A stretch of 59,500 nt of DNA from a virus. Shown piece after piece: positions 1 through 54,547 of this stretch (its first letter is position 1; each line of letters opens with the position of its first letter). The notes beneath the pieces are model-generated. The model searched no databases. It was not told the origin of the DNA and saw nothing but the letters and a program-made list of their open reading frames with translations. Made by a program: the position numbers and the translations under genes. The stretch lies in UHGV virus genome UHGV-0209830; one strand, written 5' to 3'.

Positions 1-3000
1 TGTGGGGTTGTCGTAGCCGGAGCTGAAGACGCATAGCCCGCCATAGCCTGGCTGATTGCTAGAGACGGCTCCTGCTGAGGGGTGTTCGGTGATGGCGCTG
101 CAGATGAAAAGCCCTCCATAGCCTGGCTGATTGCTAGAGCCTGCTCCTGCTGGGGGGTTTTCGGTGCTGGCGCTGCAGATGAAAAGCCCGCCATAGCCTG
201 GCTGATTGCTAGAGCCTGCTCCTGCTGTGAAGTTTTCGGAGTAGAAGGGGATACTTGATCTCCCGGAAGTAGATCAATGATTTCTGTATCGTGATTAACA
301 GTGCGTTTTTGTTGTATGGCTGTTGCGATATCAGCCACTTGAGAAGCTTTTTTAAATCCAAAAGATTTACCGGTTAAGCCGGATATCTTTTCAGTAAGAG
401 CCTGATCCATTCCTTTCGCTTTTTCGGAAAGCGAAGATATAGAACCAAACGAAGTAGCCAACGCAAAATCCTTTACCAGGTCCAGACTTGTTCCAGCAAG
501 GCTGGTAGCCGCGCCGCCAAATAAATTACTTGCACCACTGATTCCGCTTTCATTTATTGCGATTAACCGCTCAAGCAAACTCGATGGAGAGCCGGTATTA
601 ACATCAGCGTTCTCTGGATTAATCGGTTGTGGTTGGTTACCTGTTTTTTGTGGCTTTTTGACTGCCTGGGCATGTTGTGCAACCTCAATTGGCTGTTGTG
701 TTGCTGTCGGAACGGCATTCAAAACTGGTTGAGCTGGAGATTTTCCATTAGCATATTTTACCTTGCGACCAACACTATATTGCGAATCGCGGGCAATTAG
801 CTGACCACCATTTTCTTTCTGAATTTTATTAATCCGCGCCAATGTTTCGTCAGAGAATTGTCCCTCCCATCGACCAGTGTTTGTGTTAAATGCTCCAAGT
901 GCGTTCTTAATGAACTCATTATTAACTGCCGGATTTCCGCCTTCTTTCGTCGCAATTGCACGAACTAATTGCGTCATAACCTCTGGTTTGCTGACATCTA
1001 TTTTTTCATTAGGCGATACACCAAGATATTTACTGACGTTATCAATATATTGGTTAGTATTGTTCTCATTTGGCGGTGCCCATTTTGAAATGATGCTGGA
1101 TACCGTCTGTAACTTCTGATATCCCGCTGCGGCACTGGTGCCGTTGTAATAGCTGGAAACCTGGTTTGCCAGTGCCCTGATCCCTTCTTCAGGTGTGTTA
1201 AATCGCGCAAAACGTTGTTCACCTTTTGCATTTGGCGATTCCAGCGTCGCCCCTTCCTGGTTGGCAAAAACAAGATTGCCGAGATTATTATTTCGGTAAT
1301 TGCGGTTTTTAGCGTTGCTGCCGCCAATATTCAGATCCGCTGCAATGGTGTTGTTGGCAGGTGAACTAAATTCAGTTGGAGAAGTATACCCGTGCTCACC
1401 AACTCCATCCTCGCCATTACGCCCACCTTGTAATTGTTCACCTAGAGAATGAATCGCATCGACAGTTTTTTTGGTGCCGTCTTCAACAGCTTTTTTTACT
1501 TGTTTCGTGTTTTCGTCAGTGGATAAAAATGTATCCTTAAGGCTACCAAAAACAGATTTGGTGACATCTACCGCGCCGTTAACACCACGAGCAATATCTC
1601 CGGTATCAAAATTCTGAAGTTTTTCACCTGCTCTTTCAAATCCTAGCGCAGAAATTCCTTTCCCTATCAAGTTCGTTGCGCCCGACACCAAGCCCCCCAT
1701 ATCGAGCACATTAGCTGTTGCGTAAGCCGTTTTTTGCTGTTCGGATACAGCATCATCGTCACTTAATCCAAAGGCTGCCTTTTGCGCATCTGTATCAGTG
1801 TAACCATCTATAGCGTCATATCCCGCCATAGCCAGCGATCCGATGATAGGGATAGCTCTTGCAGCTGTAGAAGCAGCTGATTTAACACCTATTTTTGCAG
1901 CACTTTTGAGGGCTACGGATTCGGTTTTTTTCTTTGCAACAGTTTCACCTGTTTTAACTGTGGCCTCTTCGGCAACAACACCTGCTGGCTTAACTGCCTT
2001 TGCTGTGTTTTTTGTTTCTTTAGCAATACCCTTAGATGCGTCGCTTGTGGTGCTGATGTCTTTGGCTTTACTAACCTTTGTTTTAACAGTCTTTGCAGCT
2101 CCGGCACCAGCTCCAGCAGCAGCGGTTCCGGCAGCGGCTTTTTCACCAACAGAAAGGGCTTTTTTCCCCAGATTGCGACCTTTCCTTTTCGGTTTGTTCC
2201 GTTTATTTTTACCAGCCTGATCGCCAATATTGATTTTATTTCTTCTGCTTGCTCGATTTCTCCAGAGATCACTTAAGCCGAACTTATTCCCAGAAGATAC
2301 TGATTTGCGTAGCTTAACTACTTCGTCGGAGACATTTTCCAGACCATCAATTATTTTGTTGTCATTGGTCTGAAGAATTTTTGTTTGCTCTTCTACTGCT
2401 TGTGCTGATTTTGTCTCAACAGCATTATTAAATGCTGTTGCAGAGGTTGCTTTTTGAGTATTAACCACCGCCGGATAAGTGATAGCTGGAGATGTCTCTT
2501 TCGAAGGTGAAGCCTCACCTTTCCCCTTTTCTACCCATTCTTTAAGAGATTCTGCTTTACCTGTGATCTCTTTAGTAATGTCGTACATGCCGCGAGCAGC
2601 CATCCACAACGGACCACCAGCGCCAACACCTGCGGCATCTGTTAAAGACTCTTCACTGGAAGACTGATTGCCATCTACCCCTATAATGGAGCCTAATTTC
2701 CGGAGGAAGCCTTCTTGTAGTTTGGCGTCGGCCTTATGTGCTTTCTGCCATTCTTTTTTTCTGGCTATATCTTCGTTGTTTTTCTGGGATACAAAGCGTC
2801 CGTTACTATCCCGAAGCGGTCCTTTTTGGCTTTGGGGGGATTGTGGTTCAAGAGGAGCAGAATTAGCGGCTACTGGCACAGAACCTTTCAACTTTTGGGC
2901 TGACTGGCGTGATGACGCAAAATGAACGCGCTCTGATGTGTTGGTTGCAACAATGAGACGTTCTTCTCCGTTGTTGATCAGCGTCCTCCCTTTTTTCATC

Positions 3001-3335
3001 GGAAGGCGTTTTATATATGGGTTAGCTTGGGTGTTCTTGGCATCATCAGAGACATAGGGTTCGCTTGCTATGAGTCTACGGGATAGTCTTTGACTTACTT
3101 TACCTTGATTTTCACCAAGTTGAGTTATAGACCCTCTACCAGAGAGAATGGCGTCTTTGATCTCAGCAAGAGCGTTAAGTTCGTTTGTGCTCGCCCCCTG
3201 AATAGCGTCAATTATTGCGATACGGTCTTTATTCTCTTTCAAAATAACCTCTCTTTTGCCAGCGGCGATCAACGTTTCCCGGCTTGAGCTTTGTATTTTT
3301 CTTCCAGGGCTTTTGACATATGGAGTGCTCGCCAT
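1..3335 (-). CDS. Large virion protein, 3' end outside window (over 1100 aa in window); tape-measure/injection (Sit-like) candidate
   Basis: Hand translation of minus strand from ATG near 3335 runs without stop to position 1; absent from ORF track because no stop in window; in-frame TGA just upstream of the ATG; C-terminal 25-aa tandem repeats. Confidence 0.6.
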   Translation of the reverse strand, partial: MASTPYVKSPGRKIQSSSRETLIAAGKREVILKENKDRIAIIDAIQGASTNELNALAEIKDAILSGRGSITQLGENQGKVSQRLSRRLIASEPYVSDDAKNTQANPYIKRLPMKKGRTLINNGEERLIVATNTSERVHFASSRQSAQKLKGSVPVAANSAPLEPQSPQSQKGPLRDSNGRFVSQKNNEDIARKKEWQKAHKADAKLQEGFLRKLGSIIGVDGNQSSSEESLTDAAGVGAGGPLWMAARGMYDITKEITGKAESLKEWVEKGKGEASPSKETSPAITYPAVVNTQKATSATAFNNAVETKSAQAVEEQTKILQTNDNKIIDGLENVSDEVVKLRKSVSSGNKFGLSDLWRNRASRRNKINIGDQAGKNKRNKPKRKGRNLGKKALSVGEKAAAGTAAAGAGAGAAKTVKTKVSKAKDISTTSDASKGIAKETKNTAKAVKPAGVVAEEATVKTGETVAKKKTESVALKSAAKIGVKSAASTAARAIPIIGSLAMAGYDAIDGYTDTDAQKAAFGLSDDDAVSEQQKTAYATANVLDMGGLVSGATNLIGKGISALGFERAGEKLQNFDTGDIARGVNGAVDVTKSVFGSLKDTFLSTDENTKQVKKAVEDGTKKTVDAIHSLGEQLQGGRNGEDGVGEHGYTSPTEFSSPANNTIAADLNIGGSNAKNRNYRNNNLGNLVFANQEGATLESPNAKGEQRFARFNTPEEGIRALANQVSSYYNGTSAAAGYQKLQTVSSIISKWAPPNENNTNQYIDNVSKYLGVSPNEKIDVSKPEVMTQLVRAIATKEGGNPAVNNEFIKNALGAFNTNTGRWEGQFSDETLARINKIQKENGGQLIARDSQYSVGRKVKYANGKSPAQPVLNAVPTATQQPIEVAQHAQAVKKPQKTGNQPQPINPENADVNTGSPSSLLERLIAINESGISGASNLFGGAATSLAGTSLDLVKDFALATSFGSISSLSEKAKGMDQALTEKISGLTGKSFGFKKASQVADIATAIQQKRTVNHDTEIIDLLPGDQVSPSTPKTSQQEQALAISQAMAGFSSAAPAPKTPQQEQALAISQAMEGFSSAAPSPNTPQQEPSLAISQAMAGYASSAPATTTP
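25..245. repeat. Tandem 75-bp direct repeats (about 3 units, phase 41/116/191), in-frame within the large virion gene
   Basis: Unit ccatagcctggctgattgctagag...gcgctgcagatgaaaagccc repeated; encodes repeats like PKTPQQEQALAISQAMAGFSSAAPA on minus strand. Confidence 0.8.
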
Positions 3336-3389
3336 TGTGGCAATTGTTCAACGTCACTAACGGGCTGATATCCATACAGAGTCAGGTTG

Positions 3390-4211
3390 TTAATAATGGT
3401 TAGCCATCCATTCAGATCTAATTGATGGGATAAACTCTCTATTGAGAAAGGGGACGTACAGTGTGGTTGTCACATCTGCACCCTCCTTAGCGTTTTTGCA
3501 ATGTTGCGGAGGCAGGATCAGTCGGCTTGAGCCTCTCTCAATAGACATTTTCAGGCCGTGGCGTAGGTCTTTTTGCATAAGCTGTATGCGAGCCACAAGC
3601 GGGGTAAATTCGGTTTCAAGCGCCATGCTTTCAATGATGTCAAAGCGTCGGTTAGCGGCCTGCGTGAAGTCCTCCGGATCGTCTTCAAGCGCCGTGCATA
3701 AAGCGAGTTCAGCAATTCGCATCCGTGCTACGCCAGCACTGTATTCGGGAGTTTTCATATCAGGAAGTGACGCTCGCATTCGTTCAAGGAGTTCCGCGCC
3801 TTTCCCGGTTAATGGTTTAAGTATCCAGTCAGTTGGTACTCCATTTACTGGTACGTTGGTTTTCACGTAAGGAGGTACAGTGAGTATTTCTACTGTTTGG
3901 GCCAGGTCGCTCAGGTTAATATCTGCATGATGCGTATTACCGCAGTGACTGCACTCATAGGAGTAGGTCATTACTGCATCGGGGCGCGAATTAACAAATA
4001 TCCACCAAAGAGCAGTTCTGCGGTCCTGAACTGTCCAGTTAGCACTGTCGTTAATTTCACCATCCTGCATAGAGTTAAGGTACTCTGTAGTCGTTGCCTC
4101 ATCTTCTGCCGGGTTCAGGTCAGAATATTTCAGCGCATCCTTCACGGTAGGGGCGTGGAACTGAATTTCTGTCTCAGGATGGGAAGGCAATGGGAATTTT
4201 GGAATGTTCAA
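3390..4211 (-). CDS. Hypothetical protein (273 aa)
   Basis: ORF track; TTG start as listed; between replicon and large virion gene. Confidence 0.5.
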   Translation of the reverse strand: MNIPKFPLPSHPETEIQFHAPTVKDALKYSDLNPAEDEATTTEYLNSMQDGEINDSANWTVQDRRTALWWIFVNSRPDAVMTYSYECSHCGNTHHADINLSDLAQTVEILTVPPYVKTNVPVNGVPTDWILKPLTGKGAELLERMRASLPDMKTPEYSAGVARMRIAELALCTALEDDPEDFTQAANRRFDIIESMALETEFTPLVARIQLMQKDLRHGLKMSIERGSSRLILPPQHCKNAKEGADVTTTLYVPFLNREFIPSIRSEWMANHY

Positions 4212-4457: not shown

Positions 4458-4575
4458 GGTGTAAGATTTGCCCTCAATTAAATACGATCGGTGTAAGATT
4501 TGCCCTCAGAAGGTGTAAGATTTGCCCTCAAAAGGTGTAGTAATTGCCCTCAAAGTGGTGTAAAAATTGCCCTCA
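4458..4575. repeat. Origin iterons: five 19-bp direct repeats ggtgtaagatttgccctca (and variants) at about 22-32 bp phasing
   Basis: Copies near 4458, 4490, 4512, 4534, 4557 directly upstream of rep gene. Confidence 0.85.
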
Positions 4576-5355: not shown

Positions 5356-5647
5356 GGGCAATTTTTACACCCCTCTCAAGGTGTAGAATTTGCCCTTAAC
5401 GATCGGCAATTGAGGGTAATTTTTACATCTTAATTGCATGTATCTTGTTATTAGCAAGTTGTGTTTTTATATAACGTATTGATATGTAAGGATTATGTAA
5501 AAATCGCCCTCAACCAATATCGTGCGTATCGTGCATTCTTATTGCGCTTTTTTATTATCATTCACTGTGTTAACTGATTGATATTATTGAAATATGTAAA
5601 GAATGCCTTCATTGCTGATGGATTGATGATGTAAAAAATGCCCTCAA
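5353..5647. repeat. Downstream iteron-like repeats in both orientations (incC-like copy-control array)
   Basis: taagggcaatttttacacc, ggtgtagaatttgccctta, tgagggtaatttttacatc, atgtaaaaatcgccctca, gatgtaaaaaatgccctca interspersed with AT-rich DNA. Confidence 0.7.
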
Positions 5648-5736
5648 CATTGCGCTACCTTCCCTACCCGCTATCGTTGAGGTCGTGGGTGCTGACGGGA
5701 AATGAGCAACCCTCCAGCACACATAATTAAAGCTAT

Positions 5737-6444
5737 TCAGAATTTGATCACTCCACTCACAGCCCCCTTTAACGCGCTTGTAGCCATGCCAGCGGCACCG
5801 TTGACCAAAGCAGAAACACCTGAGCCTGCGGATGTGTATTTCTGGAAAGTGATTGGATATGACAAGAACTCTGACACCTGGTCTCGTGAGCGGGTGATTT
5901 CCCCAAGTTGAGTGGGGAATACGCGCATTTCCTCTTCCAGTTCTTTACCGCCATCCTGAGTTACCCGGTAGAGCCGGATCTTCATTAGATATTCAGGAGG
6001 AAGGTTTATTGTTCCGTCCGGGTTTGTCACGCGGGAACGACGCTCTTTGAACCAGTTCATGATCTTGCCGTCTTCGGTATCCCTTACGGTCATCGTGACT
6101 GGTCCGGCGGTGACGTAGGTTGGCTTGCTGAACTCTACGCTACCTATCACCTTGTTTTCTGTCTCGATATTTCCGCTGCTGTAGGTGATATCCTTCACGA
6201 ACATATCGAAACCGTTCAGACCGTCCACTTCAACCGTCCACTGCCATCCCTGGGCGTAACGAATACGCATAGCGGCAGCAACAATATTTTTCCCGTAGGC
6301 AATATCGCTGCTGTAGTTCCCACTTACCCCGCCGCCGGATATTGCTTTATCCAGAATGTCGCTAATGAGGTTGCTGGTGAATGATTTTGTGTTAAATGAC
6401 AGTGCGGTGGTCAACGTTCTGCCAACGCTGCTGAAAATACTCAC
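5737..6444 (-). CDS. Hypothetical tail-associated protein (235 aa)
   Basis: ORF track; co-oriented in tail gene block. Confidence 0.45.
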   Translation of the reverse strand: MSIFSSVGRTLTTALSFNTKSFTSNLISDILDKAISGGGVSGNYSSDIAYGKNIVAAAMRIRYAQGWQWTVEVDGLNGFDMFVKDITYSSGNIETENKVIGSVEFSKPTYVTAGPVTMTVRDTEDGKIMNWFKERRSRVTNPDGTINLPPEYLMKIRLYRVTQDGGKELEEEMRVFPTQLGEITRSRDQVSEFLSYPITFQKYTSAGSGVSALVNGAAGMATSALKGAVSGVIKF

Positions 6445-52302: not shown

Positions 52303-52378
52303 TGGTGGCCCCTACCGGACTTGAACCGGTGACCGTGCGATTATGAGTCGCCAGCTCTAACCACTGAGCTAAAGGGCC
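52303..52378 (-). tRNA. tRNA with CAT anticodon, tRNA-Ile2 (lysidine) type
   Basis: 76 nt cloverleaf with encoded CCA; anticodon loop CTCATAA; near-identical to recalled E. coli ileX; Met not excluded. Confidence 0.8.
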
Positions 52379-52532
52379 AGATTACTGTTAATTCCGCTTA
52401 CGCTTTTTGCCAGGACCGCGTAAGGCTTTTGCTGCTTGCTCGACCCCATATGCAACCACCAGCAGAAATAAAAATGTCCACCAAGGGTTCTTGTCGGCAA
52501 ACGTCCAAAATTCCATCATGTTCTCTATTTGG

Positions 52533-53360
52533 TTATTTCACCGGAACAAACGGTACAGCGGTATTACTGGTCATATACTGCGGTAGCGTTCCGTTCCATT
52601 TGTTGATCGCTTCCAACTCCATAACGCCGGGGTTCTGGCGCAGAGCTTCACCGCGTAAACGAATGGCATCAGCTTCAGCCTGGGCTTTTGTGCGAATGGC
52701 ATCGGCCTGTCCGGCAGCTTCTGCGCGCAGCATGTTGGCTTCTGCTTCGCGTTGCTTGACTTCCTGCTCGCGTTGCAGAGTTTTCTGGTTCGCCGTGACT
52801 TTGGCATTAATGCTGTCGATAACGGTTGGCGGGTACTCCGGCTTGCCCACATATGAGAGGCTCATTACCTGAATACCGATGGGCGTCATTTCTTCCTGGA
52901 TGTCTTTAAGAGCTGCATCCAGTAGTTCAGACTTGCCACCGTCGATAAATTTGTCGGTGGTCATTTTGCTGGCCAGTCGGTTAAGTGCGTCGGCAATCTT
53001 CTGGCGCAGGTCGGTGTCGGTAATGTCATCCACGCCTTTGCGGTAGGTCTGAAATACAGTTGTGACTTTTGCCGGATCAACCTTGTAAGCTACACCAATG
53101 TGGTAACCAATTGTTGTCCCGTCGCTCATTTGGAAGCTGAACGGATCATCATAGGTCTTCATTTGCTTAAAGGTCGGGAAGATATAAACTTCTGTGTTCC
53201 AGCCTGTCCAGTAGCGACCAACGCCAACTACTTCGCCGACACCTTTATCATCCCCCAGCTTATTTACTTTGATCCCTACATTGCCTGGTTCTACCCGGTC
53301 GCATCCGGTCAGACATAAAGAACCAAAAATAATCGCTGCACTAATCAACGTTTTTTTCAT
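52533..53360 (-). CDS. SPFH/band-7 domain lipoprotein
   Basis: Lipobox LTGC signal; SPFH-like core followed by A/E/Q-rich coiled coil. Confidence 0.55.
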   Translation of the reverse strand: MKKTLISAAIIFGSLCLTGCDRVEPGNVGIKVNKLGDDKGVGEVVGVGRYWTGWNTEVYIFPTFKQMKTYDDPFSFQMSDGTTIGYHIGVAYKVDPAKVTTVFQTYRKGVDDITDTDLRQKIADALNRLASKMTTDKFIDGGKSELLDAALKDIQEEMTPIGIQVMSLSYVGKPEYPPTVIDSINAKVTANQKTLQREQEVKQREAEANMLRAEAAGQADAIRTKAQAEADAIRLRGEALRQNPGVMELEAINKWNGTLPQYMTSNTAVPFVPVK

Positions 53361-53578
53361 TAATCAATTTCCTGGATTTTTTTGCGAAAAAAGACTACTG
53401 CAAAAGCCGGGTAAATGAGCGCGAGAAGGACTCCCAACAATACAAGTATTGTGCTGTCAGATGAGATCATATTTGGCAAAAGCCAAACATACAGAACCAT
53501 TGACACAATCAAACAGAGGACGACATAAATATATAGCCGCACCCATAGCGTTCGACATTTGTTCGGATTGTTCTGCAT
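53360..53578 (-). CDS. Small two-TM membrane protein (72 aa)
   Basis: ORF track; stop overlaps start of SPFH gene. Confidence 0.45.
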   Translation of the reverse strand: MQNNPNKCRTLWVRLYIYVVLCLIVSMVLYVWLLPNMISSDSTILVLLGVLLALIYPAFAVVFFRKKIQEID

Positions 53579-53618
53579 CCTCTCACTCCATTGTTTAACG
53601 AATAAAAAAGCTGCGGTG

Positions 53619-53633
53619 CCTGGTGCCTCCAGG
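53619..53633. other. Conserved-loop hairpin, copy B (cctgg-tgcct-ccagg)
   Basis: Same loop as copies A and C, stem covaries; about 45 bp upstream of small membrane gene. Confidence 0.5.
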
Positions 53634-53841
53634 TGACGTTAACCAGTTAACAATTAACGCCGGGATGTTTGATTTAACCACTAATAAGGATTGTTTTAAC
53701 TGTTCCGCGTGCGCTTAGCCGCATTCACCGCAATGGTAAGAGCACTTGGCTGGCTGGGCGGCGATGACGCCTGTACGCATTTGGTGATCCGGTTCTGCTT
53801 CCGGCATTCGCTTAATTAGCCAAATACTCTTAACGTTGCGC

Positions 53842-53928
53842 TGGCGGAGAGTAATGGAATCGAACCATCATCGCTTGCGCAATGGGACGGTTTTCAAGAC
53901 CGCTTGAGCACCATGCTCCCTACTCTCC
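53842..53928 (-). tRNA. Atypical type-II tRNA-like gene with TGA anticodon (tRNA-Ser(UGA)-like)
   Basis: 87 nt; acceptor GGAGAGT/ACTCTCC, G discriminator, CCA, T-loop TTCGATT, anticodon loop CTTGAAA; D-arm shortened and variable arm irregular. Confidence 0.45.
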
Positions 53929-54393
53929 GGCCGTTGTGGTGGCCGGTACTGAATCTCCGGCATACGGTGCAGCCAATTAGGACTACGGACGATCACCGCT
54001 CGCGAAAGGGAAGATTTGCGGCCGCATTTCCCTAACATCCAAGAAAGCTATCGCATCAGTCTGCGAATCCACCACAACGTTGAGAACACTGGTTGTCACG
54101 CTGCCTCGCGACCTTTATTCATAGATTGGGATATGACCCCGTTACGCCAATGTTCTCAACGTTGTAGTGCCGGTTACGGTTCCGGCCAGGCTTCTTCCTC
54201 AACGGGGTGTTCTCCATACGGACTACCGTTTATTGGTCGTTCCTGCGGTTTATGTTGTGAAGCCAGATGCTTATCTTCTGGTTGCTTCAAAGAGCTGCAC
54301 TTCATCACAACGGTAAGGGTACTTCGTAGGGATTCGAACCCTCTGCCAAGCTCGGCGATCTCCGACGTCGCAAAATACCCTTACCTGTTGTGT

Positions 54394-54469
54394 TGGTGCC
54401 GGTTAACGGACTCGAACCGCTGACATCCTGCTTACAAGGCAGGCGCTCTACCAACTGAGCTAAACCGGC
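54394..54469 (-). tRNA. tRNA-Thr (TGT anticodon)
   Basis: 76 nt cloverleaf, anticodon loop CTTGTAA, T-loop TTCGAGT, encoded CCA. Confidence 0.8.
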
Positions 54470-54471
54470 AT

Positions 54472-54547
54472 TGGCGATGGTGGATGGATTTGAACCATCG
54501 ACCCGTTGATTAACAGTCAACCGCTCTAACCGCTGAGCTACACCATC
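54472..54547 (-). tRNA. tRNA-Asn (GTT anticodon)
   Basis: 76 nt cloverleaf, anticodon loop CTGTTAA, T-loop TTCAAAT, encoded CCA. Confidence 0.8.

Follow-up and report, generated by a model that had tools for sequence, protein, structure and literature searches.

A sit-like gene with an in-frame repeat array at the window edge

We analyzed the left end of UHGV virus genome UHGV-0209830, a stretch of 59,500 nucleotides that we refer to as the window. The minus strand here carries the 5′ part of a sit-like gene, whose product is a predicted tape-measure protein (TMP) with a muralytic domain, and the coding frame meets the window edge within an array of 75-bp units that each encode 25 residues. 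The initial annotation of this DNA had described a minus-strand frame of more than 1100 codons, open to the window edge and absent from the list of open reading frames (ORFs). Exact translation of the reverse complement of positions 1-3500 bears this out: the frame is uninterrupted from 3347 to base 3 (1115 codons), and neither a stop nor a frameshift, the two features that would speak against it, occurs. The gene is missing from the mechanical ORF list because that list omits ORFs running off the source. The earliest start codon is the ATG at 3335, which gives the product the N-terminus MASTPYVKSPGRK of its RefSeq-annotated homologues. The best match is a ‘transglycosylase’ coding sequence (CDS) of the E. 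coli plasmid pEC213_2 (4281 bp, 1426 aa; 99.1% DNA identity), and judged against this closest relative, ~315 C-terminal codons lie beyond the window, which contains the first ~78% of the protein.

The gene is almost certainly a homologue of Sit. Residues 32-1045 of its product align with positions 1-1023 of the 1228-position PHROG profile phrog_7182, ‘tail injection transglycosylase’ (E=0, 1856.9 bits). In Escherichia phage D6, which shares 88.7% DNA identity with window positions 346-3400, the counterpart gene (YP_009914717) is annotated ‘tail injection transglycosylase, similar to P1 gene sit’ and stands in the order gp16, bplA, pmgA, sit, pmgB, repA, tub, pmgC. The order gp16-bplA-pmgA-sit-pmgB agrees between D6 and pEC213_2, with the pmgA/bplA side falling outside the window. 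The profile match, the annotation and gene order of D6, and the homology to P7 Sit described below therefore identify the gene as sit, in keeping with the tape-measure or injection protein that had been proposed. The window is a D6-like (P1-group) phage-plasmid; 110 matching plasmids of ~90 kb come from E. coli, Salmonella, and Shigella and are nearly all non-mobilizable, and the sit region is present in 97 of 5426 complete E. coli genomes, every time plasmid-borne.

At least three repeats of 75 bp had been reported near the edge, and we find three full units with the peptides TSQQEQALAISQAMAGFSSAAPAPK, TPQQEQALAISQAMEGFSSAAPSPN, and TPQQEPSLAISQAMAGYASSAPATT, followed by the beginning of unit four, of which bases 8-3 encode ‘TP’. 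Tandem Repeats Finder (TRF) places the array at 35-239, with a period of 75 bp, 2.7 copies, 92% matches, and a score of 347. Pairwise unit identities of 69/75, 61/75, and 60/75 correspond to binomial chance probabilities of 1e-32 to 1e-21, and the repeat is therefore far beyond chance. The description of these repeats as C-terminal is correct within the window only. In full-length relatives, the array comes after the muralytic domain, between ‘...TEIIDLLPGDQVSPSTPK’ and ‘AAPVVTSGKRTITAPSDVQIYDNGYKV...’, and ~270 conserved residues separate it from the protein C-terminus.

We note that unit 3 is unusually diverged, with 16 mismatches to the Ec-050-T0 plasmid (described below) in the first 100 nt of the window and ~1% in the other 3300 nt. 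Its peptide QQEPSLAISQAMAGYASSAPATT was not found among 313 fetched homologues, and exact 29-42-nt patterns from this unit gave zero matches in three public collections of genome, viral, and metagenome contigs. Unit 3 could be a degenerate copy, a product of recombination with a lineage that has not been sampled, or a sign that the downstream end differs.

Whole units are gained and lost in register

The initial annotation had suggested that the repeat number could vary and that isolates should be compared. We searched all complete E. coli genomes with a query of 1600 nt consisting of the two unique flanks only, and took the array length from the span of the two-piece match; the unit counts include the truncated terminal unit. 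The repeat-type allele occurs in 57 plasmids whose flanks are 95.4-100% identical, and copy number does vary, from 1 to 17 units, in a unimodal distribution with its mode at 5-6. In detail, the plasmids carry 1 (3 plasmids), 2 (3), 3 (2), 4 (7), 5 (11), 6 (9), 7 (5), 8 (6), 9 (4), 10 (3), 11 (1), 14 (1), or 17 units (2). Array lengths differ by multiples of 75 bp, with four records off by a further 9 bp, and the frame is never broken. The DNA units are 92-100% identical, and only 8 of 75 nucleotide columns vary within one array, consistent with units often recombining or slipping against one another.

Independent deposits of one strain, or of sister strains, give matching counts: WCHEC035148, deposited twice, has 4 units both times, MLI108K1 and MLI108K2 have 17 each, and AR_0118, AR_0119, and AR_0128 have 6 each. 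This agreement is evidence against assembly noise. The array is an in-frame minisatellite in which whole units are gained and lost in register, and we are nearly certain of its copy-number instability. An on/off phase-variable contingency locus was considered and rejected, since all variants stay in frame (multiples of 75 or 9 bp).

The allele present in the window is the one that bears repeats. D6 and many Salmonella and E. coli plasmids possess another allele of the last ~400 aa, with 68% protein identity, a 44-aa linker, and zero units, and a family alignment reveals that other lineages have a short variable linker (DLL...YDNGYKV) where the E. coli array sits. TRF counts 6.7 copies in pEC213_2, 11.7 in the Shigella plasmid CP058777, and 0 in D6, while protein records form a graded series of 1, 2, 3, 4, 5, and 7 units. 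A tandem repeat was not found in the P7 sit region.

The Ec-050 plasmids resolve individual unit events

Five plasmids come from the strains Ec-050-T0, -T5-MAC, -T5-ESBL, -T20-ESBL, and -T20-MAC (human stool, Switzerland) and measure, in the same order, 90446, 90296, 89996, 89996, and 89996 bp. Their sit CDS lengths of 4581, 4431, and 4131 bp correspond to 10.7, 8.7, and 4.7 TRF copies, i.e., 11, 9, and 5 units, with three isolates sharing 5 units. The 1600-nt flanks are 100% identical across the series, and the gaps in plasmid size (150 and 300 bp) equal the gaps in array length. When unit variants are lettered, the order is a-b-c-d-b-c-e-b-c-e-f in T0, a-b-c-c-d-b-c-e-f in T5-MAC, and a-b-c-e-f in T20. 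T20 can thus be derived from T0 by a single in-register deletion of six units, and T5-MAC by one three-unit deletion plus one single-unit duplication.

Protein architecture and a distinct muralytic domain

The full-length protein has four parts: (I) an N-terminal Sit-like region, (II) the muralytic domain, (III) the 25-aa repeat array, and (IV) the conserved ~270-aa C-terminal domain that lies beyond the window. By BLASTP, the full-length relative P0001 aligns with P7 Sit over its N-terminal ~600 aa (26% identity, 602 columns, E=4e-32) and again over its last ~80 aa (E=0.003), while the muralytic part remains unaligned; a tblastn search against P7 sit gives 42.8% for aa 474-617. Between the muralytic domain and the array, the segment ends in a DLLPG junction, which a multiple alignment marks as the site of array insertion relative to D6.

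A domain search of the central region, which had also been suggested, returned zero Pfam matches for the window protein and P0001, and an NCBIfam search of the protein was likewise empty. The muralytic domain was identified through PDB, PHROG, and Foldseek. In a phmmer search against PDB, aa 675-804 match 7q47_A ‘Endolysin’ (E=1.1e-15), and a second match is 9vvp_L Gp29 (E=2.5e-13). For structure prediction, AlphaFold2 (AF2) was run on a 1138-aa relative with a 31-sequence alignment; the mean predicted local distance difference test score (pLDDT) was 48, and only the muralytic domain, the one part modelled with confidence (pLDDT 80-92), is trustworthy. Foldseek with this model gives 7q47 as the sole significant match (probability 1.00, E=7e-7, TM(target) 0.65). 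Long helices are modelled in the N-terminal part, the greater share of which has pLDDT <50. The protein itself is very long, exceeding 1111 aa in the window and reaching 1426 aa in its relative. The same muralytic domain is found in Chi-like endolysins and in the K1F-type internal virion protein gp16.

P7 Sit (L008 1867-5259), in contrast, contains the Pfam SLT domain PF01464 at aa 748-857 (E=6.6e-27), and SLT is found neither in the window protein nor in P0001. D6-type Sit is thus a mosaic relative of P1 Sit in which the muralytic domain has been swapped for a non-orthologous one. The RefSeq name ‘transglycosylase’ is inherited from P1 Sit, whereas the muralytic domain here is of a different family; with SLT absent and an Enc34-endolysin-type domain present, this name is therefore unverified for D6-type proteins.

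The repeat unit is conserved as a peptide in distant homologues

A HMMER search of 1.84 billion representatives yielded 33 family members at E<=1e-30. Self-BLAST of homologues returned only the identity match for internal repeats; we checked repeats by eye, by hidden Markov model (HMM), and by regular expression, using self Smith-Waterman (lax gap penalty, noisy) as a pointer only. One of the 33 family members, P0132 (1095 aa, 41% identical), whose gene lies on a 102-kb plasmid from Nissabacter sp. SGAir0207, contains six tandem 25-aa units TPLQEQIQAVYDAEHGKASAPAAPA directly after its muralytic region. The Nissabacter unit and the E. coli unit TPQQEQALAISQAMEGFSSAAPAPK have equal periods and agree in 12 of their 25 residues. 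In the proteins most closely related to P0132, a 41-aa unit built on the shared core TLQ(Q/E)NIQAVADAQ occurs two or three times; others lack it. As the 25/41-aa unit is kept as a peptide in distant homologues, a purely DNA-level or accidental repeat is disfavored. The repeat module is thus old, has been conserved as a peptide, and was amplified independently.

Within each unit, AF2 places one helix of 8-14 residues with coil between (pLDDT 30-55). With low confidence, each unit may combine a short helix of amphipathic character (QQEQALAISQAME) with a proline-rich linker after it (GFSSAAPAPKTP), a model that agrees with the unit sequence, in which an amphipathic stretch precedes a linker and three prolines occur. 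With no Trp, a single Phe, three Pro, and a period of 25 aa, the units fall outside the 11/18-aa Trp/Phe repeats.

We also observe that the post-muralytic region of the family is especially prone to internal duplication, with a variety of modules involved. For example, a 25-aa module is present six times and a 41-aa module two to three times, P0125 duplicates ~28 aa, P0131 duplicates a C-terminal domain of ~100 aa, and ‘...NAEGLRHQ’ modules recur. Of these, the 25-aa and 41-aa units were inspected in detail. Proteins with such duplications are P0132, P0133, and P0271-P0273 of the Nissabacter lineage, as well as P0125, P0128, P0131, P0138, and P0146.

Neighboring features

The coordinates of the gene, its parts, and its neighbors are collected in Table 1.

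Table 1. The sit-like gene, its predicted parts, and adjacent genes in the window.
Feature	Position	Strand	Evidence and remarks
5′ part of sit-like gene (predicted tape-measure/injection muralytic protein)	1..3335	-	1111 codons from ATG; cut by left window edge
Partial in-frame 75-bp (25-aa) array	3..233	-	Unit 1, 233-159; unit 2, 158-84; unit 3, 83-9 (diverged); fourth starts 8-3
Muralytic-to-array region: Pro/Gln-rich linker, then Gly/Ala/Ser-rich helical segment (SSLLERLIAINESG...KSFGFKKASQVADIATAIQQKR)	234..887	-	Translation, alignment, low-confidence AF2 helices
Muralytic (lysozyme-like) domain, Enc34-endolysin type	888..1313 (aa 675-816)	-	phmmer against PDB, Foldseek, AF2
P1/P7 Sit-homologous N-terminal two-thirds, presumed ruler	1485..3215 (aa 41-617)	-	BLASTP against P7 Sit; helical/disordered prediction
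pmgB-like gene	3390..4211	-	Directly upstream of sit; PHROG 1854 ‘PmgB-like’, E=5e-134; same order in D6 and pEC213_2
RepB-family initiator gene (repA)	4567/4600-5355	+	Beyond the pmgB-like gene
Tail-tube (tub-like) gene	5737-6444		After the RepB-family initiator gene

A 22-bp direct repeat (GGTGTAAGAATTGCCCTCAAAA; 3.9 copies, 4490-4575) lies upstream of and overlaps the start of the RepB-family initiator gene, and is also found in the Ec-050-T20 plasmid. These copies are probably iterons of the plasmid origin, embedded between the pmgB-like and tub-like genes as in D6. In pEC213_2, a gene for a TnpB-family RNA-guided endonuclease stands directly after repA (L002 8674-9400), whereas in the window (~5356-5736) and in D6 the tub-like gene follows repA without it, an insertion polymorphism of the backbone. 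Elsewhere in the window, ARAGORN detects four tRNA genes on the minus strand at 52303-54547 (Met-CAT, Ser-TGA, Thr-TGT, and Asn-GTT), three of which are confirmed by Rfam at gathering score; the tRNA-Ser at 53842-53928 has no such confirmation. A 21-bp direct repeat near this cluster (TTGACTTCCTGCTCGCGTTGC; 2.0 copies, 52735-52776) may be a chance match.

Discussion

The Sit protein of P1 (1140 aa) has been detected in virions and was assigned as the tape measure by its size, its helical N-terminal two-thirds, and its SLT domain, and pmgB, just upstream of sit in P1, was proposed as the tape-measure chaperone (PMC9024508). In a cryo-EM study of 2026, Sit is named as the TMP that occupies the baseplate and the tube of 52 rings, although the protein was not resolved (PMC12810830). 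TMP insertions, duplications, and deletions alter tail length proportionally in lambda, T4, and TP901-1, and in the latter all but ~127 residues count (PMC5099701); TMPs with variable repeat numbers have been described (PMC3271669, PMC13585406).

By analogy with these proteins, the N-terminal region of the window protein would be the ruler threaded through the tail tube. Like other TMPs, the protein would reside inside the tail lumen, and its C-terminal part would lie close to the baseplate hub. On expulsion of the protein during infection, the muralytic domain would break down peptidoglycan. Units may be gained and lost by unequal homologous recombination or replication slippage, and the array would act as a length-adjustable spacer in the tail lumen, with each extra unit lengthening the intraluminal polypeptide. 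Extra units would most likely lengthen the tail in small steps, as suggested by lambda gpH, T4 gp29, and the TP901-1 TMP; alternatively, the array could determine how far apart the muralytic domain and the C-terminal end domain can reach as the envelope is crossed. One 25-aa unit could, on our assumption of 1.5 Å per residue, add up to ~3.75 nm, near one tube ring. The real increment per unit may be smaller or nil because of the three prolines per unit and the position beyond a globular domain. On balance, we lean towards a real geometric effect of the array, as ruler or spacer.

Several points weigh against this interpretation. An effect on tail length is purely what we infer from other phages, and the tape-measure role of Sit in P1 is itself based on size, composition, and proteomics and not on length mutants (PMC9024508). 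The array stands downstream of the globular muralytic domain, outside the N-terminal helical part usually taken as the ruler, the prolines speak against a continuous coiled coil, and AF2 confidence in the array is low. We also infer from strain names only that the Ec-050 isolates are serial samples of one patient; a literature search for a paper on these isolates found none. Finally, the tolerated range of 1-17 units, with none in D6-type alleles, is equally compatible with a neutral linker. A minisatellite in a disordered linker, drifting in copy number without effect on tail or infection, especially in the silent plasmid-prophage state, is in our view a plausible alternative, though not the one that we favor. 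It would explain the broad unimodal distribution of copy number, the Pro-rich composition and low pLDDT of the array, the D6-type alleles with only a 44-aa linker and no unit, and the near identity of the DNA units, as expected of recent neutral turnover. It sits less well with the retention of the 25-aa period and core motif in a 41%-identical homologue from another Enterobacterales family, which argues for selection on the peptide, with the 41-aa variant of the unit in the relatives of the Nissabacter homologue, or with the finding that almost every residue of the TMP contributes to the length of the tail in TP901-1, lambda, and T4 (PMC5099701).

Two further explanations would remove the observation itself or move it to the level of DNA. 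Errors in resolving an array of 0.1-1.3 kb might simulate copy-number differences in an array that is truly constant; short-read assemblers do collapse 75-bp tandem repeats, and protein records from short reads cluster at low copy numbers. We consider this very unlikely, as the same- and sister-strain records listed above agree, three of the Ec-050 plasmids among them, unit-variant orders are separated by clean whole-unit events, and each record is a complete, circular plasmid, with differences in total length that are exact multiples of 75 bp. That the array serves instead as a DNA element, i.e., as iteron- or centromere-like protein-binding sites or as plus-strand coding sequence, seems hardly credible, even though it lies less than 4.5 kb from plasmid repA and has a stop-free frame on the opposite strand. 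The 22-bp repeats beside repA are the better candidates for iterons, D6 replicates although it has no unit, and the unit, whose period is a multiple of 3 and which is always in frame with an ORF of 1100+ codons, is conserved in distant homologues as a peptide and not as DNA. The plus-strand ORF 82-258, which we rejected as a gene, is a by-product of the stop-free frame of the unit.

Comparison with known systems places the window protein closest to D6 Sit and the RefSeq ‘transglycosylase’ proteins of D6-like plasmids: it is the same gene, between pmgA and pmgB, with the same muralytic domain and N-terminal region. D6 itself differs in having the unit-free allele with its linker, whereas the window has the repeat allele with a diverged third unit. 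P1/P7 Sit is alike in its position in the tail/baseplate module, in its homologous N-terminal ~620 aa and C-terminal ~80 aa, and in its predicted role as a ruler with muralytic activity delivered at ejection (PMC9024508), but P7 Sit combines an SLT domain with the absence of a tandem repeat, in contrast to the Enc34-endolysin-type domain and repeats found here. The only solved structure matching the muralytic domain is the catalytic domain of the Hafnia phage Enc34 endolysin (PDB 7Q47). That endolysin is a free lysis enzyme, whereas the domain in the window is embedded in a predicted virion-borne protein of more than 1400 aa.

The muralytic families of T5 pb2 (M23-type peptidase) and TM4 Tmp (Rpf-like or other motifs) differ from that of the window protein, and we are not aware that a hypervariable minisatellite has been described in either gene. 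Both proteins are nonetheless alike in joining a ruler to a muralytic domain toward the C-terminal part, and both were named as analogues of Sit (PMC9024508). The TMPs with 11-aa aromatic repeats of mycobacteriophages, TP901-1, and staphylococcal phages share with the window protein in-frame repeats whose number varies among relatives (PMC3271669, PMC5099701), and in TP901-1 the removal of repeats shortens the tail proportionally (PMC5099701). They are distinguished from it by the period (25 aa in the window, 41 in some relatives), by Trp/Phe register markers, which the window units lack, and by the three prolines per unit found here. In siphophage TMPs the array lies in the central ruler, whereas here it follows the muralytic domain in the TMP of a contractile-tail phage. 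A further difference is that window-type DNA units barely differ from one another and turn over among plasmids that are themselves nearly identical.

The gene family has been annotated and variable repeats in TMPs are known (PMC5099701, PMC13585406, PMC3271669). Our literature search found no description of this minisatellite in D6-like sit or of its dynamics within a lineage; the D6 genome paper (Gilcrease & Casjens 2018) was outside this search, and a prior mention is possible.

TMPs are the textbook molecular ruler, and natural fine-scale variation of a ruler within one phage lineage has rarely been documented. In public complete genomes, alleles with 1-17 units are available in backbones that are nearly identical, a ready natural experiment that bears on two points: whether TMP residues beyond the muralytic domain contribute to the tail length of a contractile-tail phage, and whether variation of this kind affects infection. 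Because short-read assembly collapses the array, the sizes of D6-like phage-plasmids and their sit gene calls are unreliable in such data. We tentatively suggest, as a rather doubtful extension, that the array could be a fast-mutating dial, in which unit turnover during plasmid carriage would yield progeny varying in tail length or in muralytic or membrane-inserting reach. If this is true, standing variation in the geometry of the virion would exist within a widespread lineage of phage-plasmids, and the 25/41-aa helix-plus-proline module of distant P1/D6-group elements would be a dedicated building block.

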